Shown: positions 5,923 through 14,700 of the stretch, piece by piece
Position numbering within the stretch: the first letter of the stretch is position 1
Layout: each line of letters opens with the position of its first letter
Virus genome (UHGV): UHGV-0149439
Source: a virus
DNA length: 29,037 nucleotides
Direction: 5' to 3' (one strand)
Notes under the pieces: model-generated
What the model saw: only the letters and a program-made list of their open reading frames with translations
Told to the model about the DNA's origin: nothing
The model's database searches: none
Made by a program: the position numbers and the translations under genes

Positions 5923-6474
5923 GTGGGTAACGAACCAATCTGGAAAGTCGAACGTCAGCCTAGTTGGCTGGTGGTAGCGATTAAAAAAACGATTACCGAT
6001 CTGCCTGGTGGATATTCTGAGGCTGCGGAATGGTTGGGCGTGACAGAGAACGCATTGTTTAACCGCCTTCGTGTGGACGGGGATCAGATCTTCCCTATGG
6101 GATGGGCGATGGTGCTACAGAAAGCCGCCGGTGTTAGCTACATAGCAGATGCGTTTTCTCGTCAAACAGATAACGGGATTCATATCCCTGGTGCAGCACC
6201 AGAAACAGAGAACGAAGAAATTGGCTTAAAGCTGGCTGAGCTGGTGGGCAGGCTTGGGGATCTGGTCAACGCATACCGTCGATACATCGATGATGGTGTA
6301 GTTGATAAAGGGGAGTGGGACAGTCTGAATGAAATCGCCTACCAGTTCCGGGTAACGCTTATGACGTTCCTGAACCTGATTTCACGAGTTTATTGTCTTC
6401 CTGAAAAGAGTGACGCCCGCGAGTGTGCAGCTCCGGGCGCCTTGGCGAACAAATCTTCGAGTATGGAGAAATAA
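5923..6474 (+). CDS. CII-like phage regulatory protein (183 aa); family assignment tentative
   Basis: Position immediately after cro; AAGGGG Shine-Dalgarno then GTG; HTH-like segment AAEWLGVTENALFNRLR. Confidence 0.45.
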   Translation: MGNEPIWKVERQPSWLVVAIKKTITDLPGGYSEAAEWLGVTENALFNRLRVDGDQIFPMGWAMVLQKAAGVSYIADAFSRQTDNGIHIPGAAPETENEEIGLKLAELVGRLGDLVNAYRRYIDDGVVDKGEWDSLNEIAYQFRVTLMTFLNLISRVYCLPEKSDARECAAPGALANKSSSMEK

Positions 6475-6646
6475 TCCGCATGAGCAGTTTAACGGCTTTT
6501 AACCGTCTACCGCAACTCAGGATGATCCCGGTTTCGGGTACTCCGTTGTTTCGGTATGAACGCAGATTATCAAACCGCTGGGTTCCGTGTAACCACAGTA
6601 GGGCGGTTTCAATTGTGGGGGTCTATAACCGGAGGGCAAAACGCCT

Positions 6647-6826
6647 GTGCGCGAACTTAACCGAAGGTTCAAAGACAACCGCGGAGTGCCAGTCCGTGTT
6701 ATCCGCTGGGAGCCAGAAACACAGCGCGTTATCTATCTGCGTGATGGCTACCCACACGAATGCTTCAGCCCACTTGAGCATTTCAGGCAAAAGTTCAGGG
6801 AGATAACGGACGATCATGAGCACTAA
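6647..6826 (+). CDS. Candidate small protein (59 aa, VRELNRRFKDNRGVPVRVIRWEPETQRVIYLRDGYPHECF...), missed by the 60-aa ORF cut-off
   Basis: GGAGGG Shine-Dalgarno 10 nt before a GTG start; ends 11 nt into the replication gene; more protein-like than the overlapping track ORFs 6423..6806 and 6623..6823. Confidence 0.3.
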   Translation: MRELNRRFKDNRGVPVRVIRWEPETQRVIYLRDGYPHECFSPLEHFRQKFREITDDHEH

Positions 6827-7673
6827 ATTAACCGGCTACGTATGGGATGGTTGCGCGGCGTCGGGCATGAAGTTGTCTAGTGTCGCGATCATGGCTCGCC
6901 TTGCTGATTTCAGCAGCGATGAGGGGGTGTGCTGGCCGTCCATTGAAACTATTGCTCGTCAGCTTGGCGCGGGGCCGAGCACTATCAGAACGGCAATCGC
7001 TAAGCTTGAAAAAGATGGCTGGCTCACGCGTACACAGCGCCGCAATGGTAACCGTAATGCGTCGAACGTTTACCGCCTGAATGTGGCGAAACTTCAGGCT
7101 GCCGCATTTTCTCAACTGTCAGATTCTGACACGTCAAAATCTGACGCATCAAAATTTGACGCCTCAAAAGCTGACCCGTCGAAATCTGGCAAAAACGGCG
7201 GTTTTGACCCGTCAGAATCTGGCGGGGATCCGTCAGTAAAATCAACACAAGATCCACAAGTAACTTCAAAACCCTCTTGTCCGGTTGCGGCGCAACCAGA
7301 CCCTGAAGTCGTGATTACTGACCAGGCGATCTTAGTTTTGTCCCATTTGAATCAGATCAGCGGATCCCGGTATCAGAAATCAAAAACATCCCTGGAGAAC
7401 ATTCGTGCCCGACTGCGTGAGGGGTACAGCGTTGCAGACCTGCAACTTGTTATCGACCTGAAGCATGAACACTGGCACGAGAACGACGAGCAGTACCAGT
7501 ACATGCGCCCGGAAACGCTGTTCGGCCCGAAGAAATTCGAGAGCTATCTGCAAAGCGCTACCCGCTGGGAGCAGAAGGGACGGCCTAAACGCGCTGACTG
7601 GGGTGCGAAAAATCGCGATGTGATGGCTTTTGGTCCGGTTGATACAAGGATTCCAGAGGGGTTCAGAGGATGA
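6816..7673 (+). CDS. Phage replication initiation/organiser protein (N-terminal winged-helix region, repeat linker, conserved phage C-terminal domain)
   Basis: N-terminal HTH-like region (SIETIARQLGAGPSTIRTAIAKLEKDGWLTR); C-terminal DLQLVIDLKHEHW...ETLFGPKKFESYL block typical of phage replication proteins; internal iterons. Confidence 0.7.
   Translation: MSTKLTGYVWDGCAASGMKLSSVAIMARLADFSSDEGVCWPSIETIARQLGAGPSTIRTAIAKLEKDGWLTRTQRRNGNRNASNVYRLNVAKLQAAAFSQLSDSDTSKSDASKFDASKADPSKSGKNGGFDPSESGGDPSVKSTQDPQVTSKPSCPVAAQPDPEVVITDQAILVLSHLNQISGSRYQKSKTSLENIRARLREGYSVADLQLVIDLKHEHWHENDEQYQYMRPETLFGPKKFESYLQSATRWEQKGRPKRADWGAKNRDVMAFGPVDTRIPEGFRG
7126..7218 (+). repeat. Iteron array (candidate origin) inside the replication gene: four tandem 15-bp repeats plus one offset copy
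   Basis: ctgacacgtcaaaat / ctgacgcatcaaaat / ttgacgcctcaaaag / ctgacccgtcgaaat in perfect 15-bp register (7126-7185), fifth copy ttgacccgtcagaat at 7204-7218. Confidence 0.6.
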
Positions 7674-8551
7674 CGTTAAACAAATATTGCCAGGCGCTGG
7701 TGGCACTACGTAGCCAACCAGCCCACGAATTGAAAGAAGTTGGCGATCAGTGGCGGACACCGGATCTGCTTTTCTGGGGTATCAACGCGCTATTTGGACC
7801 ATTAGTTCTGGACTTGTTTGCTGACGACGACAACGCGAAGTGCCCGGCATGGTACACCGCCGAAGATAATGCGCTGACGCAGGACTGGTCTGAACGTCTT
7901 GCAGAACTGGGTGGCGCTGGTTATGGCAACCCACCGTATAGCCGTTCGCAGTACCACGAGAAACAGGCGATCACCGGCATGACGCACATCATGAACTACG
8001 CAGCAGCCCAGCGCGAAAAGGGCGGGCGTTATGTATTCCTGATAAAAGCCGCGCCGAGTGAAACGTGGTGGCCGGAAGATGCCGATCACATTGTATTCAT
8101 TCGCGGGCGCATTGGGTTCGATCTGCCTGTGTGGTTTGTACCGGCTGACGAAAAACAGAAGCCCACCAGCGCGTTTTTTGCCGGTGCCATAGCTGTATTC
8201 GATAAGTCGTGGCGTGGTGAGCGGTTCAGCTATATCAACCGCACAGAACTTGAGGAAAAAGGGCGGGCATTTATGGCGTTGGCTCAATTCGCCGTTGGTA
8301 AAGAGCAAACAATTGCAATGCAGGCAGCCAGGGAACCAGCAGCAACACCGGAAACTGAGTCACGAATCTGGCCTCTCGAGGTTGGTCTGGTGTTTAACCA
8401 GGTGGAAGGCGTTGATGTATTGAGCGAGGCCCAGCAGAACAAACTGAAAGCCAACATCAATCAACTCTGGCTGGAACGAACGGCCACCAGCGAAATTATC
8501 ACAATTGCGCGTGGTCTTGTTGGCAGCATGCAGGGGGTAACCCATGCGTGA
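7670..8551 (+). CDS. DNA N6-adenine methyltransferase, phage Dam-like (293 aa); no adjacent endonuclease
   Basis: GYGNPPYS (DPPY/NPPY motif IV of amino-methyltransferases); start overlaps the upstream stop. Confidence 0.75.
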   Translation: MTLNKYCQALVALRSQPAHELKEVGDQWRTPDLLFWGINALFGPLVLDLFADDDNAKCPAWYTAEDNALTQDWSERLAELGGAGYGNPPYSRSQYHEKQAITGMTHIMNYAAAQREKGGRYVFLIKAAPSETWWPEDADHIVFIRGRIGFDLPVWFVPADEKQKPTSAFFAGAIAVFDKSWRGERFSYINRTELEEKGRAFMALAQFAVGKEQTIAMQAAREPAATPETESRIWPLEVGLVFNQVEGVDVLSEAQQNKLKANINQLWLERTATSEIITIARGLVGSMQGVTHA

Positions 8552-10478
8552 GATTATCGTTGATAACTTTGCTGGTGGCGGTGGTGCATCAACGGGTATT
8601 GAACTGGCGATCGGACGCAGCGTGGATATTGCGATCAACCACGACGAAAACGCCATTGCGATGCACAAGACGAACCACCCGGACACACTGCATTATTGTG
8701 AATCCGTATTTGACGTGGATCCTGTAGCCGCCACCGGAGGTAATCCAGTCGGACTGGCGTGGTTTAGCCCGGACTGCCGACACTTCTCGAAGGCAAAAGG
8801 CGCAAAGCCTGTGAAAAAAGAGATACGCGGTCTTGCCTGGATTGTTCTGCGTTGGGCACTGGCGAAGCGACCGCGTGTGATGATGCTGGAGAACGTGGAA
8901 GAGTTCAAAACGTGGGGACCGCTGCTGGCCGATGAAATGCGTCCGGATCCTGCCCGCACTGGCGAAACATTCAATGCATTTGTCGGCATGCTGTCCACTG
9001 GCATTCCTGCTGACCACCCGGCACTGTCAGAAGTTTGTGAGTTTCTGTCTATTGAAAGAGGTAGCGAGCAGGCGCAACTGCTGGTGGATGGGCTTGGATA
9101 TGATGTTGATTATCGCGAACTACGCGCGTGTGATTACGGCGCGCCGACGATCCGCAAACGCTTCTTCATGGTTATGCGCTGCGATGGCTGCCCAATCCAG
9201 TGGCCTGCTGTTACCCATGGGGATCCTAAGTCTCTGGAGGTGCAGAGCGGCAGGCTGATGCCATGGCGTACCGCTGCGGAATGTATCGACTGGAATGTTC
9301 CGGCCCTGTCCATCTTCGACCGCAAAAAACCGCTGGCGGAGAACACTCTGAAGCGGATCGCGCGCGGCATACAGCGCTTTGTTATCGAAAGTGCGTCGCC
9401 GTTTATCGTGAAGTGTAACCACACAAGCTCAAAAAATTCGTATGACGCTTTTCGCGGGCAGTCGCTGAATGAACCATTACAGACCATTACTAAAAAACTC
9501 GGCTACGCGTTAGCCGTTCCACACCTGACAAAATTCCGCACTGGCGCAACCGGGCAGCCCGTTACCGAACCTGTCCCGACGGTAACCGCTGGCACGTCAA
9601 AACGCCCGGGTGGGAATGGGCATGCTCTCGGGATTGTTGAGGCTGCACTGACGCCATTCCTGGCGGGTAATGGTGGTAGTGAATACCAGGCTAAACCGCG
9701 CCCGCTGGATAAACCTGCTCATACCATTCTGAAGCAATCCCGCGCCTGTCTGGTTGCGCCAGTGATAGCCCGCCAGTTTGGGGCCAGCGTTGGCCATCGG
9801 GCAGACGAACCGAGCGCAACCATAACCGCTGGCGGTGGCGGTAAATCTCAACTGGTAACGCCTACGCTGATCCAGATGGGTTATGGCGAACGACCTGGAC
9901 AAGAACCGCGTGTGCTGCGGCTGGATAACCCGCTGGGGACCGTTACTGCAGGCGGAAATAAATTTGCGACGGTGAGCGCGTTCCTGGCGAAACACTACGG
10001 CGGTAACTATACGGGGCCTGGTGTCAGTATGGATGAACCCGCGCATTCAGTGACCACTGTCGACCATCATGCAGTAGTTGCCTCTCATCTGGTGAAACTG
10101 CGTGGAACATGCCGCGACGGGCAACGCCTGGATGGGCCCATGCCAACAATCACCGCTGGTGGCCAACACGTGGGTGAGGTACGCACATTTCTCGAGACGT
10201 ATTGCGGGGAAAGTGACGATGAATGGCTGGTAACTATCGATGGGGTGAAATACCAGATCGTTGATATCGGAATGCGCATGTTGCAGCCGCATGAACTCTA
10301 CAAAGCGCAGGGCTTCCCCGATGGATACGTTATTGATCAGGACTACCGTGGAAATCGCTATGCAAAAGATAAGCAGGTAGCCCGCTGCGGTAATGCGGTA
10401 CCACCACCATTCGCCAGGGCGCTGGTGGAGGCAAATCTTCCGGAACTGTGTGCAGTGCAACAACAGGAGGTGGCATGA
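8544..10478 (+). CDS. DNA cytosine-5 methyltransferase with an unusually long variable region of repeated modules (644 aa)
   Basis: Motif I FAGGGG, catalytic SPDCRHFSKA (PC motif), ENV motif MLENVEEF, C-terminal CGNAVPPP; five T(I/V)TAGG-type repeats in the variable region. Confidence 0.88.
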   Translation: MREIIVDNFAGGGGASTGIELAIGRSVDIAINHDENAIAMHKTNHPDTLHYCESVFDVDPVAATGGNPVGLAWFSPDCRHFSKAKGAKPVKKEIRGLAWIVLRWALAKRPRVMMLENVEEFKTWGPLLADEMRPDPARTGETFNAFVGMLSTGIPADHPALSEVCEFLSIERGSEQAQLLVDGLGYDVDYRELRACDYGAPTIRKRFFMVMRCDGCPIQWPAVTHGDPKSLEVQSGRLMPWRTAAECIDWNVPALSIFDRKKPLAENTLKRIARGIQRFVIESASPFIVKCNHTSSKNSYDAFRGQSLNEPLQTITKKLGYALAVPHLTKFRTGATGQPVTEPVPTVTAGTSKRPGGNGHALGIVEAALTPFLAGNGGSEYQAKPRPLDKPAHTILKQSRACLVAPVIARQFGASVGHRADEPSATITAGGGGKSQLVTPTLIQMGYGERPGQEPRVLRLDNPLGTVTAGGNKFATVSAFLAKHYGGNYTGPGVSMDEPAHSVTTVDHHAVVASHLVKLRGTCRDGQRLDGPMPTITAGGQHVGEVRTFLETYCGESDDEWLVTIDGVKYQIVDIGMRMLQPHELYKAQGFPDGYVIDQDYRGNRYAKDKQVARCGNAVPPPFARALVEANLPELCAVQQQEVA

Positions 10479-10861
10479 AACTTGTGCTCCCGTTCCCTCC
10501 GAGCGTGAACACTTACTGGCGCGCCCCTAACAAGGGGCCGCTGGCCGGTCGTCACCTCATTAGCGCAGATGGTCGTAAATACCAGAGCGCTGCCTGCATG
10601 GCGATCATTGAGCAATTACGACGTCTCCCGAAGCCATCGACTGAACTGGCAGCGGTAGAAATCACTCTGTACCCGCCGGATGCGCGCCGCAGGGATATCG
10701 ATAATTACAACAAAGCCCTGTTTGACGCGCTGACTCATGCGGGTGTCTGGGAAGATGACAGCCAGATTAAGCGCATGCTGGTGGAATGGGGACCCGTAGT
10801 GCCGAAAGGTCGGGTAGAGATAACGATCAGCAGATATGAACCGGCGGGTGCAGCCGCCTGA
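10475..10861 (+). CDS. rusA: RusA-family Holliday junction resolvase (128 aa)
   Basis: AGGAGG Shine-Dalgarno; MKLVLPFPPSVNTYWR... and RRRDIDNYNKALFDALT closely follow the RusA pattern; ATG overlaps the upstream stop. Confidence 0.88.
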   Translation: MKLVLPFPPSVNTYWRAPNKGPLAGRHLISADGRKYQSAACMAIIEQLRRLPKPSTELAAVEITLYPPDARRRDIDNYNKALFDALTHAGVWEDDSQIKRMLVEWGPVVPKGRVEITISRYEPAGAAA

Positions 10862-10874
10862 TATGGAGAAAAGT

Positions 10875-11561
10875 ATGAGCCAGTTAATCGTGAATGGTGT
10901 AGTAACAATGTCCAGCCGTGATATTGCGGATCTGGTTCAAAGTAAACACAGTGACGTGAAACGCTCGGCTGAGCGCCTTGTTGCTGCGGGAATTTTAACC
11001 GCGCCGTTGGCGCAGTTCGATTTTGAGCATAACGGCAATATTTACCAGGAGTATCGTTTTAACAAACGCGACTCTCTGGTGATTGTTGCCAGACTGTCAC
11101 CTGAATTTACCGCCGCGGTCGTCGATCGCTGGCAGGAACTGGAAGAAGGGCAGAGTGTCAGTGTTCCCCGCTCATTGCCGGAAGCACTTCGCATGGCTGC
11201 TGATTTAGCCGAGCAGAAAGAGCAACTGACCATCCAACTGGCAGCCGCGGCGCCAAAAGTGGAGTTTGTTGACCGTTACTGCTCTGCAAAAGGCTCCATG
11301 TCATTCCGGCAGGTAGCCAAATTGCTCAACGCAAAAGAAACTGAGTTCCGCCTGTTCCTTATTGAACGCAATATCCTGTATCGCCTCGGCGGCACACTTA
11401 CCCCCATGGCGCAGCACATTTCAGCGGGAAGATTTGAAGTTAAGACGGGAACATCGAGCACATCCAATCACGCCTTCAGCCAGACGCGCTTCACTGCCAA
11501 GGGGGTACGCTGGATTGGTGGTTTGTGGGCTGAACATATTGCAGGGGGGCAGGCGGCGTGA
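10875..11561 (+). CDS. Phage antirepressor / Rha-type regulatory protein (228 aa; track ORF opens at 10836)
   Basis: GGAG Shine-Dalgarno before ATG 10875; N-terminal MSQLIVNGVVTMSSRDIADLV typical of Rha/antirepressor N-domains. Confidence 0.55.
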   Translation: MSQLIVNGVVTMSSRDIADLVQSKHSDVKRSAERLVAAGILTAPLAQFDFEHNGNIYQEYRFNKRDSLVIVARLSPEFTAAVVDRWQELEEGQSVSVPRSLPEALRMAADLAEQKEQLTIQLAAAAPKVEFVDRYCSAKGSMSFRQVAKLLNAKETEFRLFLIERNILYRLGGTLTPMAQHISAGRFEVKTGTSSTSNHAFSQTRFTAKGVRWIGGLWAEHIAGGQAA

Positions 11562-12553
11562 GGGCTTTGTTAACTCCTGAAGTCGCCCATCGCATGGGGA
11601 TTGTGTTGTTTCGTCCCGGCGCGGAATTAATGCACCTCTTCATGCGCGGTCGCGTTCTTCTCGAACCTGAACCAGAAGAAATGGCGTCATTCAGTACAGG
11701 GGCTGTTCCCGCCGCCATTCAGCCGCTGGCTGATGATCCGGTAATGCGGAAGGTCTTCGAGAATGAACGGGTTATTCAGCGTGCCGGCGGGCTTCCTTCC
11801 CTTGAGCAATGGTTGAGTAATCGGTTTGAATGCCAGTGGCCACATTCAACGTGGCACGACAAGAACTTCACAACAATGCGGCACCCACCAGGAAGCATTC
11901 GTCTGTGCTGGCATTGCGATCACACTTTGTCCGGGCAGCATACCGAACAGCTTGCAGGTATAGCGGCAGGAAACCTGGTATCCTGGATTCTGGAAGTTAT
12001 TCGTCGCGATTCTGGTTTTCCCGAGTCGCATGTACTGACGTTGCCGGAAATGTGCTGGTGGCTGGTCAGGAACGACCTGGCTGATGTTATTCCGGAAAGC
12101 GTTGCGCACAAGGGGCTACGCCTTCCGGATGAGAAGATCCGCTCTGTTATGAGGGAAAGCGACATTGTGCCTTCCGTGTCAGCAGCCAGCCTCGTGCAGG
12201 AGAAGGCTAAGAAGATCCTCACGCTCTCTGTTGATCCGGAGTCGCCAGAGTCTTTCATGCTCAGGCCAAAACGTCGCCGCTGGGTAAATGAGACGTACAC
12301 CCGCTGGGTTAAAACACAACCCTGTGAGTGTTGCCGACGGCCAGCAGATGATCCGCACCATATCGTAGGGCACGGTATGGGGGGGACAGCAACAAAAGCC
12401 CATGATCTCTTCGTGATCCCTCTGTGCAGAGAGTGCCACGACGAGTTACACGCCGATGTACCGGCATTCGAGCAGAAGCATGGTACGCAGCTTGAGCTGC
12501 TACTGCGTTTTATGGATCGGGCGCTGGCGATCGGCGTAATTGCGAAAGCTTAA
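11558..12553 (+). CDS. DUF968-like phage protein with a C-terminal Cys/His zinc-finger, HNH-like (331 aa)
   Basis: C-terminal CECC...HHIVGHGMGG...IPLCRECHDELH cluster; GTG start overlapping the upstream stop. Confidence 0.5.
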   Translation: MRALLTPEVAHRMGIVLFRPGAELMHLFMRGRVLLEPEPEEMASFSTGAVPAAIQPLADDPVMRKVFENERVIQRAGGLPSLEQWLSNRFECQWPHSTWHDKNFTTMRHPPGSIRLCWHCDHTLSGQHTEQLAGIAAGNLVSWILEVIRRDSGFPESHVLTLPEMCWWLVRNDLADVIPESVAHKGLRLPDEKIRSVMRESDIVPSVSAASLVQEKAKKILTLSVDPESPESFMLRPKRRRWVNETYTRWVKTQPCECCRRPADDPHHIVGHGMGGTATKAHDLFVIPLCRECHDELHADVPAFEQKHGTQLELLLRFMDRALAIGVIAKA

Positions 12554-12574
12554 GTGTATGGAGCGCAAAGAAGC

Positions 12575-13264
12575 ATGAATCAACAAGACCTGAATTTTGT
12601 AAGAATAGAATTGCGCCGCGCGCTACCTGACCTCTCTGGGGGAACAAAAGGGCAGCTTGAGGCTTTCAGTGAACACCCACCAGCAGACAAAAATGCCACC
12701 CCGCGCCGTGGTATTCATCTCGTCGAACTCGAAGGAGAGAAGGGGCCACGCTTTGTTAACTCGCTTTCCGCGCCACTGTATGTGCTGGAAACACGCAGCC
12801 GCCGCAGGCCAATGCCGCCGATAAAAGATGCGGAATTTGAGTCCGCGCCGTGGCGTAGGGCAGTGTCCGCGCTTAGTGGATACCAGCAGGCCTGGTTGCG
12901 GTACTGCTACGGTTTTGACCTTAGCTATAAGCACCAGGTGATGATGTGTGAATACGTCTGGAAAACTTATCAGAAATGCCTGGGTGAAAACTCGCTTCAG
13001 GAGCGCGTAGTAAAGAAACTGATAGGCCTGGTATGGCTGGCAGGGCAGGAAATTACCGCAACCCGAAACAATGAAACCTATAAAGACTACGCTGGCGCGG
13101 CGCTGGCCCGTATGGTTAGCGTTGACCGTTCGACTTGGTTGCGCGTCTATTCAGGGCACTGGGCAGGGTTAAAGGCTGCTTTTACCCAGCTTGATGAGTC
13201 TGCGCTGGTCATGGCTCTTGAATACTATGAGGATGAAGAAGCACTCAAAGTGGCAGAAATGTGA
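12575..13264 (+). CDS. Putative late-gene antiterminator (Q-like) (229 aa from ATG 12575; track ORF opens at GTG 12554)
   Basis: Called mainly from context: last early-region gene, followed by a promoter-like AT-rich segment and an intrinsic terminator ahead of the lysis genes. Confidence 0.45.
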   Translation: MNQQDLNFVRIELRRALPDLSGGTKGQLEAFSEHPPADKNATPRRGIHLVELEGEKGPRFVNSLSAPLYVLETRSRRRPMPPIKDAEFESAPWRRAVSALSGYQQAWLRYCYGFDLSYKHQVMMCEYVWKTYQKCLGENSLQERVVKKLIGLVWLAGQEITATRNNETYKDYAGAALARMVSVDRSTWLRVYSGHWAGLKAAFTQLDESALVMALEYYEDEEALKVAEM

Positions 13265-13356
13265 AGTAAATTTCACTATCTCCTTCAAACGCGCTTGCAA
13301 AATGCAACAAAATAAGCCATATTTGAAGCATATTTGATATGTTGCCAAAGTTTTAT

Positions 13357-13380
13357 AAACCCGCCTATGAGCGGGTTTTT
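13357..13380 (+). terminator. Intrinsic terminator downstream of the Q-like gene (tR'-like)
   Basis: Stem aaacccgc/gcgggttt with loop ctatga, then a T-run. Confidence 0.55.
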
Positions 13381-13391
13381 GCGTTATAATT

Positions 13392-13423
13392 CACCTATTT
13401 AAATCAATTGTTTTAAATAGGTG
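13392..13423 (+). promoter_or_regulatory. Perfect 12-bp inverted repeat CACCTATTTAAA-N8-TTTAAATAGGTG covering the Shine-Dalgarno of the 283-aa cargo gene
   Basis: Arms at 13392-13403 and 13412-13423; the AGGTG SD-like element lies inside the 3' arm; ATG at 13428. Confidence 0.45.
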
Positions 13424-13427
13424 AAGT

Positions 13428-14279
13428 ATGAAAATAGATAATCCCGAAAATCCACTTGAACGAAACGATTTTACGATGGATGACTTCCATCACTACTTAA
13501 GGGAGTTTGATAAAGCTGTATGTGAAGCGAATGCTGTAAGTCAGGGGGTTGGTGTGCGAATGGCTGAGGCTTTTAAAGGGTGGTCTACATACATTTTTTC
13601 ACGAATCTGCATTCATGCTTCAATAATGATTTCCAACGTACCAAGATCAAGATGGGCTAAGCGGGATTATGACTTTTGGGATTTTTCGGCGATTGCACCT
13701 CATGTAAGAGCGATTCTGGAAGCTGAGTTATTGTTTATGTATTTATCTGAGAATCCAGATTCAACTGAGGAGTGGTCAGCAAAGTTGAATGTCATGCACA
13801 TGAATGATTGTGTAAAGAGAATTGAGTTATTTACATCTAGTGATAATACGAAAGCATTGGATTTTTATCATGAACAAAAAGATATAATAACTGAGAGACT
13901 TAATAACAACCCTGTTTTTTTATCCCTTGAACAAGGAACCAGAAAACGTTGCTTGACTGGAAAAGCGCTTATGATTCCAAATCGAGATGAGTTATTGGTT
14001 AAACTGGGAAAAGATCCAAAGTCATTTAAAATAATGTTCGATTTTTTATCTCATTATACGCATATACTACCTATGTCATATTATAAAATGGAGCCAAACG
14101 GAAGGGGAACTGGTTGTTTTAACAACTATGACTTTGGCTATATGATTATGGGGATGATTATTTGTACTGAATCCTTGACTAAGTGTACAGATAGATTAGT
14201 AGAACTTTTTCCTGATGTTAGACGGTTGCGAAAAGGAACTAAATCAAAATTCACGTTAGGGCCTAAACCAACAAAATAA
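13428..14279 (+). CDS. Hypothetical protein (283 aa), low-GC cargo gene between the Q-like gene and the lysis cassette
   Basis: Long ORF with markedly lower GC than neighbours (by eye); no TM segment or family recognised. Confidence 0.75.
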   Translation: MKIDNPENPLERNDFTMDDFHHYLREFDKAVCEANAVSQGVGVRMAEAFKGWSTYIFSRICIHASIMISNVPRSRWAKRDYDFWDFSAIAPHVRAILEAELLFMYLSENPDSTEEWSAKLNVMHMNDCVKRIELFTSSDNTKALDFYHEQKDIITERLNNNPVFLSLEQGTRKRCLTGKALMIPNRDELLVKLGKDPKSFKIMFDFLSHYTHILPMSYYKMEPNGRGTGCFNNYDFGYMIMGMIICTESLTKCTDRLVELFPDVRRLRKGTKSKFTLGPKPTK

Positions 14280-14468
14280 CAATGAGTAGCTTGCTGTTAT
14301 TTTAAAGGCTTCCAAATGGAAGTCTTTTATAATTTCAGGCTTTGCAAATTATACTAATCTTCACATTTTCATAATAGCTCATAAGCCTGCCCCCCTTCCA
14401 TCAACCACAGCGCTGCATAATCTGCTCGGCTCTATACTATCTGCTTAGTATCGCGAAGGAATGTATGT

Positions 14469-14585
14469 ATGAAAGAAGGGGATTACTGGATTCAGCATGT
14501 GTGTGTTGTACAGGTGGCGTTTTACACCGATGACACTGTAGATGACCTGAAATGGGGAAAACAATCAAAGGAGTCTGGCACCTAA
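14469..14585 (+). CDS. Candidate small ORF (38 aa, MKEGDYWIQHVCVVQVAFYTDDTVDDLKWGKQSKESGT)
   Basis: GAAGGA a few nt upstream of overlapping ATGs; terminator-like hairpin downstream; weak support. Confidence 0.2.
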   Translation: MKEGDYWIQHVCVVQVAFYTDDTVDDLKWGKQSKESGT

Positions 14586-14674
14586 CCAGAGTCGATGATA
14601 TTTGCCATAACAGAGAGGCCGAAGTGCTTGAAGGTCCTCTCGCTCCATTAATGTAAGTAACCGTTCATACTTCG

Positions 14675-14700
14675 AGGCTGCCAGATGGCGGCCTTTTTTA
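14675..14700 (+). terminator. Intrinsic terminator upstream of the lysis cassette
   Basis: Stem aggctgcc / ggcggcct (one G-U pair), loop agat, followed by TTTTTT. Confidence 0.5.

Follow-up and report, generated by a model that had tools for sequence, protein, structure and literature searches.

The 29,037-nucleotide viral genome UHGV-0149439 (the whole of this stretch is hereafter referred to as the window) carries, between its Q-like late-gene antiterminator and its lysis genes, a gene of the DUF5677 family whose Shine-Dalgarno (SD) sequence is buried in a perfect leader hairpin, and leaders that mask the SD recur among the homologues of this gene in the same slot. The arrangement is tentatively read here, with a probability of about 0.4, as a self-contained moron cassette that is gated in the manner of gene e of phage T4 and encodes a DUF5677 protein beneficial to the lysogen. 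According to this reading, the hairpin would act at the RNA level: in transcripts arriving from upstream, i.e., those begun at the late promoter pR' and antiterminated by Q, the anti-SD sequence TCACCT would pair with the SD AGGTGA and block ribosome loading. A weak promoter of the cassette itself, at a TATAAT hexamer, would start transcription at about position 13397, some 7 nt past the hexamer and beyond the anti-SD, and transcripts of this kind could form no SD-masking stem and hence would be translated. The protein would then be made in the lysogen and shut off in the phage's own late phase, and its most likely role would be one that benefits the lysogen, e.g., anti-phage defence.

The leader hairpin and the adjoining -10 box

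The preliminary description of this DNA had reported a perfect 12-bp inverted repeat over the SD of the gene. The repeat is exact (CACCTATTTAAA at 13392-13403, an N8 spacer, and TTTAAATAGGTG at 13412-13423), and it in fact extends to perfect 14-nt arms around an 8-nt loop, with the SD located inside the 3' arm and 3 nt 5' of the ATG (Table 1). No perfect hairpin-type repeat of the 29 kb is longer, the runner-up being 10 bp, and none of 200 block shuffles attained 14 bp (they contained on average 0.02 arms of at least 12 bp); the repeat therefore exceeds chance. The leader RNA folds at -19.1 kcal/mol (z = -4.1; 0 of 200 shuffles equally stable), and the predicted pairing probability of the SD in the full leader is 1.00. 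Rfam contained no family for the leader, with weak matches to the Phe and Trp leaders falling far under threshold. The hairpin at 13390-13425 was also considered as an intrinsic terminator and rejected: only 4 of its 14 pairs are G-C, it is A/T-rich, no T run follows (the next bases are GTATGAAA), and the terminator scan does not list it.

Among the relatives, it is the pairing that is retained. In the clade with 89-90% identity (loci L080-L082), the stem is present as TCACCTGT/ACAGGTGA, with a double change, G-C for the A-T of the window. In L080, the open reading frame (ORF) of which has a synonymous divergence (dS) of 0.54 from that of the window, the loop and the inner stem have diverged while the SD/anti-SD stem is still kept, and only the 8 bp complementary to the SD remain symmetric. 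In the alignment of this clade, a small sample for which the structure was taken from one of its own rows, 83% of the cells pair as compared with 33-55% in slid controls, and two pairs change on both sides. More distant cassettes have leaders of unrelated sequence in which the SD is paired anew (z = -4.92 in L077, -3.98 in L080, -3.30 in L048, -2.73 in L052, -2.32 in L073, and -2.22 in L053). The SD is masked in about 10 of the 17 distinct leader types. The median z of these 17 types was -2.4 as compared with -0.36 in 125 controls (Mann-Whitney p = 3e-6), and the SD was paired at a probability above 0.8 in 41% of the family leaders and 6% of the controls, a comparison weakened by the fact that the controls, gene leaders from the same loci, are mostly intragenic and that the leader types are not fully independent. 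Chromosomal (non-phage) homologues have no such leader structure. Judged from these sequences, the conserved feature is the pairing with the SD and not the DNA sequence, and a translational block at the RNA level fits better than an operator.

The candidate promoter of the cassette abuts the anti-SD arm. The sequence TTAYAAT is invariant in 11 aligned leaders, hairpin-less members included, and the sequence beyond it diverges; in the prophage of E. coli Nissle 1917, the TATAAT is absent despite the same Q and terminator. In seven leader types (those of the window, L080, L052, L058, L073, L053, and L048), the anti-SD arm is preceded at a distance of 0-1 nt by a -10-like hexamer. An RNA that starts at 13397 folds at -3.2 kcal/mol with z = +1.07 and is thus predicted to be unstructured. 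Moreover, a terminator after the stop codon matters only for polymerase that has not been modified by Q, i.e., for transcription begun inside the cassette. With its recurrent geometry of -10 box, anti-SD, and SD, the leader presents a familiar regulatory device in a new form, and the gene itself adds to a family that is known but uncharacterized, its slot being likewise of a known type.

Cassette limits, genomic slot, and neighboring features

The first possible start codon of the gene is at 13428, an in-frame TGA being present at 13422-13424. As the preliminary description had stated, the 283-codon ORF is AT-rich, with a GC content of 0.360 against 0.512 in the whole window and 0.518 in the window without the cassette. 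The Q gene upstream has 89% DNA identity to a gene of the E. coli Nissle prophage annotated 'bacteriophage antitermination protein Q', and two holin genes (from 14746 and from 15128) and then an endolysin gene (from 15564) follow 3' of the DUF5677 gene. The earlier placement of the gene as cargo in the Q-to-lysis slot is borne out by Q with its terminator, by the holins, and by the Nissle prophage, which has Q and the terminator in common with the window (97% identity up to 13380) and then diverges into wholly different cargo, namely a serine protease and a DNA methyltransferase.

The limits of the cassette were drawn from breakpoints of homology. The closest relatives (L037 and L044, 99%) are homologous up to 14413 and then diverge, and in the Hafnia-type relatives homology is confined to 13357-14279, the left edge of DNA homology between cassettes being the terminator at 13357-13380. 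A prophage of Citrobacter freundii (L061-L065) shares with the window a backbone of 95-96% identity (window 6385-12563) but has another Q (131 aa, PF06530) and a 58% allele of the DUF5677 gene, after which an N6/N4 DNA methyltransferase gene follows; Q and the downstream cargo seem to have been exchanged there as a single block.

The definition of a moron used here reportedly comes from Juhala and Hendrix. In agreement with it, the gene is present or absent between homologous neighbors, deviates in base composition, and has a terminator of its own downstream. As for a promoter of its own, TATAAT/TACAAT is perfect and invariant in the clade, but it has no -35 element, no TGn, and no match in the two-hexamer scan. 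It is supported by these comparisons that the DUF5677 gene is add-on cargo (a moron) in the Q-to-lysis slot. The best reading of the unit is a series of terminator, -10 box, leader, ORF, and terminator in a lambdoid prophage, no other gene lying between the Q-dependent terminator and the ORF.

Homologues of 48-100% identity are the first ORF after the antiterminator and before the holin in seven genera (Hafnia, 86%; Enterobacter, 82%; Citrobacter, 58%; Yersinia, 57%; Pantoea, 58%; Raoultella, 50%; and E. coli). Four kinds of antiterminator (PF06530, DUF1133, PF03589, and an unannotated type of 200 aa) and three kinds of holin occur at these loci, and in the tblastn panel no relative above about 55% identity had another context, which was also seen in one clade at 48-50%. 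In all 29 Q-slot loci, which span 49-100% protein identity, the GC content of the ORF is 0.35-0.38 as compared with 0.49-0.55 in the flanks. Low GC thus stably characterizes the family and is no mark of recent arrival, and of the earlier suggestion that the gene was horizontally acquired, the part that stands is its nature as added cargo, while a simple recent acquisition does not. The gene is carried by 17 of 5,426 E. coli genomes and by nine plasmids. It is common in prophages and uncultured viral contigs, yet it is absent from deposited phage genomes, in which megablast returned similarity to the holin only.

Table 1. Positions of the cassette, its elements, and its upstream flank in the window
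Feature	Position	Strand	Details
Q-like late-gene antiterminator	12554..13264	+	phrog_304 'anti-termination protein Q-like', E 8e-72; backbone, outside the cassette
Candidate late promoter pR'	13295..13323	+	TTGCAA, 17-nt spacer, CATATT; putative, read by eye
Cassette extent by homology breakpoints	13357..14413	+	
Intrinsic terminator-type hairpin, tR'-like	13357..13380	+	AAACCCGC-N6-GCGGGTTT and T run
-10-like hexamer, candidate cassette promoter	13385..13390	+	TATAAT; abuts anti-SD arm; without -35, without TGn
Hairpin 5' arm	13390..13403	+	TTCACCTATTTAAA; contains TCACCT (anti-SD)
Hairpin 3' arm	13412..13425	+	TTTAAATAGGTGAA; contains SD AGGTGA at 13419-13424
DUF5677-family gene	13428..14279	+	ATG start, 283 aa; soluble, all-alpha
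Intrinsic terminator of the cassette	14304..14327	+	scan match, 10-bp stem; -13.1 kcal/mol, z = -4.0

The terminator after Q folds at -12.1 kcal/mol (z = -2.7) and is conserved in all close relatives; it was unlisted by the terminator scan because its T run is absorbed into the stem. Beyond the stop codon, terminators of unrelated sequence are found 16-27 nt downstream in 13 of 19 representative cassettes. The candidate pR' matches 8 of 12 consensus positions, which is under the threshold of the promoter scan, and hence it was not listed; analogous promoters precede the terminator in L066 and L077. The candidate pR' and the terminator both fall in a 116-nt block after Q (13265-13380) that would yield a transcript of about 50 nt, and 66 E. 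coli genomes, that of Nissle 1917 among them, contain this block at about 97% conservation, always beside the same type of Q.

Several other features of the window were recorded. Between the terminator of the cassette and the holin, a match to the Hfq-binding small RNA isrI (RF01392) is present at 14564-14660 (+), with 47.5 bits as compared with the gathering value of 45 (E 4e-8). It belongs to a block (14414-14700) that also contains an ORF of 38 aa (14469..14585) and a terminator (14674-14695); the block is not shared with the 99% relatives and is therefore regarded as a second, separate cargo module. An ORF of 644 aa at 8544-10478 (+), with an N-terminal C-5 cytosine DNA methylase domain (PF00145, E 7e-20), is an insertion between a Dam-like methylase gene and RusA relative to the Citrobacter and Nissle prophages, the flanks being 95-96% identical. 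Just past the lysis cassette, a homologue of Ivy (inhibitor of vertebrate lysozyme; PF08816, E 1.3e-19) is encoded at 17205-17627 (+) in a second low-GC stretch (16600-17800, 0.41-0.44) and is probably another moron.

The protein family and its association with conflict genes

The preliminary description had assigned the protein to no recognized family, which proved incorrect. The window protein itself matches DUF5677 (PF18928) over residues 84-219 with E 2.4e-4 and 21.7 bits, which is under the gathering cut-off of 27.1 bits, the model having 166 positions as compared with about 280 aa in this protein family. However, 72 homologues were found, many of them with PF18928; 31 of the 38 that were aligned match it (best E 3e-7), distant relatives score 35-46 bits, and a homologue in E. 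coli with 80.5% nucleotide identity is named 'DUF5677 domain-containing protein' in RefSeq. The protein can thus be placed as a divergent DUF5677 subfamily, with membership that holds by transitivity of these matches. Of the two kinds of search that had been proposed earlier, the profile search accordingly returned a family, while the structure search, treated below, gave no fold. At both the N- and the C-terminus, the window family has conserved parts beyond the Pfam model, among them a GxKSKFxxGPK tail. A profile search of 1.84 billion representatives gave 1,255 clusters (50% identity) at E <= 1e-3.

The ratios of non-synonymous to synonymous substitution (dN/dS) against relatives were 0.17, 0.09, and 0.04, which indicates a real gene under strong purifying selection. 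The AlphaFold2 (AF2) model is all-alpha and of high confidence (pLDDT 89.2, pTM 0.88). The protein is soluble, with a maximum 19-residue hydropathy of 1.19 and no transmembrane segment, and its acidic N-terminus has no signal peptide or lipobox; of the roles that the preliminary description had suggested, abortive infection or exclusion, an exclusion protein of the membrane type (Sie) is therefore ruled out. The residues C61, H124, D127, C128, and H212, the ExNGRGxG loop, and the basic GxKSKFxxGPK tail are invariant, and they could possibly form a metal or catalytic site. An inspection of these residues by eye, which is not a formal test, gave nothing convincing for a HEPN (Rx4-6H) or HD motif. 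In the relatives of about 450 aa, the N-terminal extensions of about 200 aa contain no Pfam domain except for one weak MtlR-like match. A profile of the 38 homologues gave noise only against PDB sequences.

Outside the phages, relatives of the gene are found in variable regions. Distant relatives sit directly 3' of three kinds of tightly spaced, operon-like partner genes: a TIR-DUF3298 gene with a 7-nt overlap (L026, 4773-5972, and L022; found in Stenotrophomonas and, as a related case, in Luteimonas/Lysobacter), an AIPR/MzaE-like gene with a 5-nt gap (L036, 3921-5990; Boseongicola), and in Vibrio a gene for a DUF4365 restriction endonuclease (REase) with TPR (L069, 4012-5934). One relative (P0178) is fused to a RES domain, and this fusion together with the TIR, AIPR, and REase neighbors suggests a shared partner module for varied effectors. 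The neighbors of the non-phage relatives include HsdM (two), TIR (two), PLD (two), SMC_N (two), AIPR, AAA_13, AAA_15, Zeta toxin, IS66, and MobA. A fixed operon partner was considered and rejected: the DUF4365-TPR neighbor in Vibrio is lineage-specific, and the 104 neighbors of non-phage homologues are heterogeneous. DUF5677 has also been noted as enriched beside serine recombinases in Bacillota. It is plausible from these neighborhoods that the family belongs to the gene pool of phage-host conflict, and a sensor, a regulator, an effector, or a neutralizer would all be compatible with them.

Known systems, rival explanations, and implications

The closest precedent is found in phage T4, where the initiation regions of e (lysozyme), soc, 49, and I-TevI are masked in long transcripts and open in those that start from a promoter embedded in the 5' arm (PMC3014915). 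As in these genes, the SD and the start codon of the window gene are, by prediction, sequestered in a stable leader helix, a candidate promoter element is located in the 5' strand of the helix or just 5' of it, so that the short transcript would lack the inhibitory strand (the hexamer adjoins the anti-SD arm in each of the seven leader types given above), and relatives retain the structure despite drift of the sequence. However, transcription starts have been mapped in T4, where the embedded element is one of the late promoters of that phage (TATAAATA) and silence is a property of the early transcripts. In the window, it would be the Q-dependent late transcript that is silent, and a sigma-70-type -10 box without -35 would give rise to the active one. 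With other lambdoid morons and Q-to-S cargo such as stx, the cassette shares its position as an extra gene between late genes, a deviant composition, its own terminator, and absence from a sister prophage; it differs in that one family returns to the slot in seven or more genera and with four Q types, in its leader hairpin, and in a putative promoter that consists only of a -10 box. The moron concept is cited in the study of BstA (PMC8585504), and, like BstA of BTP1 and Tai of phi80, the window gene is a single prophage gene at a mosaic hotspot. The Tai defence moron of phi80 is constitutive and is reduced when Q is expressed (PMC11364771), and this decrease, when Q drives late transcription, matches the outcome predicted for the window cassette. 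Nevertheless, there is no relation in sequence or fold to either of them. Tai is accompanied by an anti-Tai gene in a non-contiguous operon (PMC11364771) and BstA by the DNA element anti-BstA (PMC8585504), whereas self-sparing in the window would be translational, and its defence role is only a proposal.

Several results weigh against the proposed gated moron cassette. Neither a -35 element nor an extended -10 precedes the TATAAT, and the two-hexamer scan found no promoter directly 5' of the gene in the window, L066, L048, or L077. The four relatives at 99% identity keep the leader with one uncompensated T-to-G stem mismatch, which lowers its predicted stability to -13.5 kcal/mol, and the clades at 82-87% (Hafnia, E. 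coli, and Enterobacter) have no SD hairpin. A tblastn search of 50,697 sequenced phage records returned no homologue. With respect to function, the window protein had 0 matches in PHROGs, NCBIfam, and PADLOC (PADLOC-DB v2 gave only four isolated one-member chance matches among the 38 homologues), Foldseek found no fold match for the AF2 model in PDB and BFVD, and a defence role is suggested by association only. Moreover, the sole experimental datum in the literature concerns a distant DUF5677 ORF of Bacillota, which was tested and is not listed among the protective ones.

The strongest alternative is that there is no cassette promoter at all and that the gene is the first late gene, transcribed from pR' by Q-modified polymerase, with the hairpin as a fixed attenuator of an abundant late mRNA. 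The role of the protein would then be lytic, e.g., host takeover, lysis timing, or counter-defence. This alternative, which is regarded as somewhat unlikely, accounts for the fact that at no enterobacterial locus does another ORF come between Q with its terminator and this gene, as well as for the lack of a canonical promoter directly 5' of the gene in the four loci named above, and the hairpin has the stability to repress translation of every transcript in which it is present. On the other hand, the terminators that follow the stop codon in the majority of the cassettes have no role in a purely Q-antiterminated unit, the invariant -10-like hexamer is placed exactly so that a start there would exclude the anti-SD, and the hairpin-less clades retain this hexamer. 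The same leader could also be explained as an RNase III processing or mRNA-stability element or as an RNA thermometer, since the extended helix measures about 19 bp (5 + 14 bp) in the window and about 21 bp in L077, which is near the size of RNase III substrates, and the stem is A/U-rich. This is improbable, because the length of the helix varies (8 bp in L080; 5-11 bp in L052, L053, and L073) while the involvement of the SD is conserved, and because a perfect helix of -19 kcal/mol is more stable than typical thermometers. Still less probable is a DNA operator at which a dimeric repressor would shut off the cassette promoter. The perfect 14-bp palindrome does begin with the final base of the TATAAT and extends across the expected start site, and the compensatory change in L080 preserves the DNA symmetry as well. 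However, no other copy of the half-site was found in the window at two or fewer mismatches, with matches at three mismatches occurring at chance level, and the palindrome was therefore rejected as an operator of the prophage repressor; the cassette encodes no regulator; the symmetry of L080 is limited to the 8 bp complementary to the SD, with diverged inner arms; and the other leaders, of unrelated sequence, each pair with the SD, which fits an RNA structure and not a shared DNA-binding protein. Of the translational or operator control that the preliminary description had left side by side, the former is thus favored by the recurring SD-masking leaders and the compensatory change, and the latter is disfavored by the single copy of the half-site.

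A different function was also considered, in which the phage protein would be a counter-defence factor, i.e., a solo copy of the regulatory or neutralizing partner of TIR, AIPR, REase, and RES effectors that serves to disarm them. The non-phage family is indeed a constant partner beside variable effectors (TIR, AIPR, and DUF4365 REase-TPR, as well as the RES fusion of P0178), and the phage copies are always solo. Nevertheless, the cases with partners are few and most non-phage neighbors are heterogeneous or unassigned, no pairs of effector and DUF5677 were seen in Enterobacterales, the home of the phage copies, and a position in the late operon would be poor timing, so that this function is considered distinctly unlikely. 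A bolder version of the gated moron cassette would regard DUF5677 as a structurally unprecedented class of conflict factor (for defence or counter-defence) in which the prophage spares itself by a transcript-specific translational switch with an embedded promoter; this is unlikely, too, although to a lesser degree.

If the proposed gating is true, it would provide a cheap and general route by which a prophage could confine to the lysogen the expression of a gene that may be harmful to the prophage itself, a form of self-immunity unlike the anti-BstA DNA element or the anti-Tai protein. The order of terminator, -10 box abutting the anti-SD, SD, ORF, and terminator would then be a signature by which lysogen-only cargo in late operons could be recognized, and DUF5677, with its repeated linkage to TIR, AIPR, REase, and RES effectors, would receive a candidate function. 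If only the ordinary part holds, the cassette would still be a well-delimited moron of an uncharacterized family with a translational attenuator.

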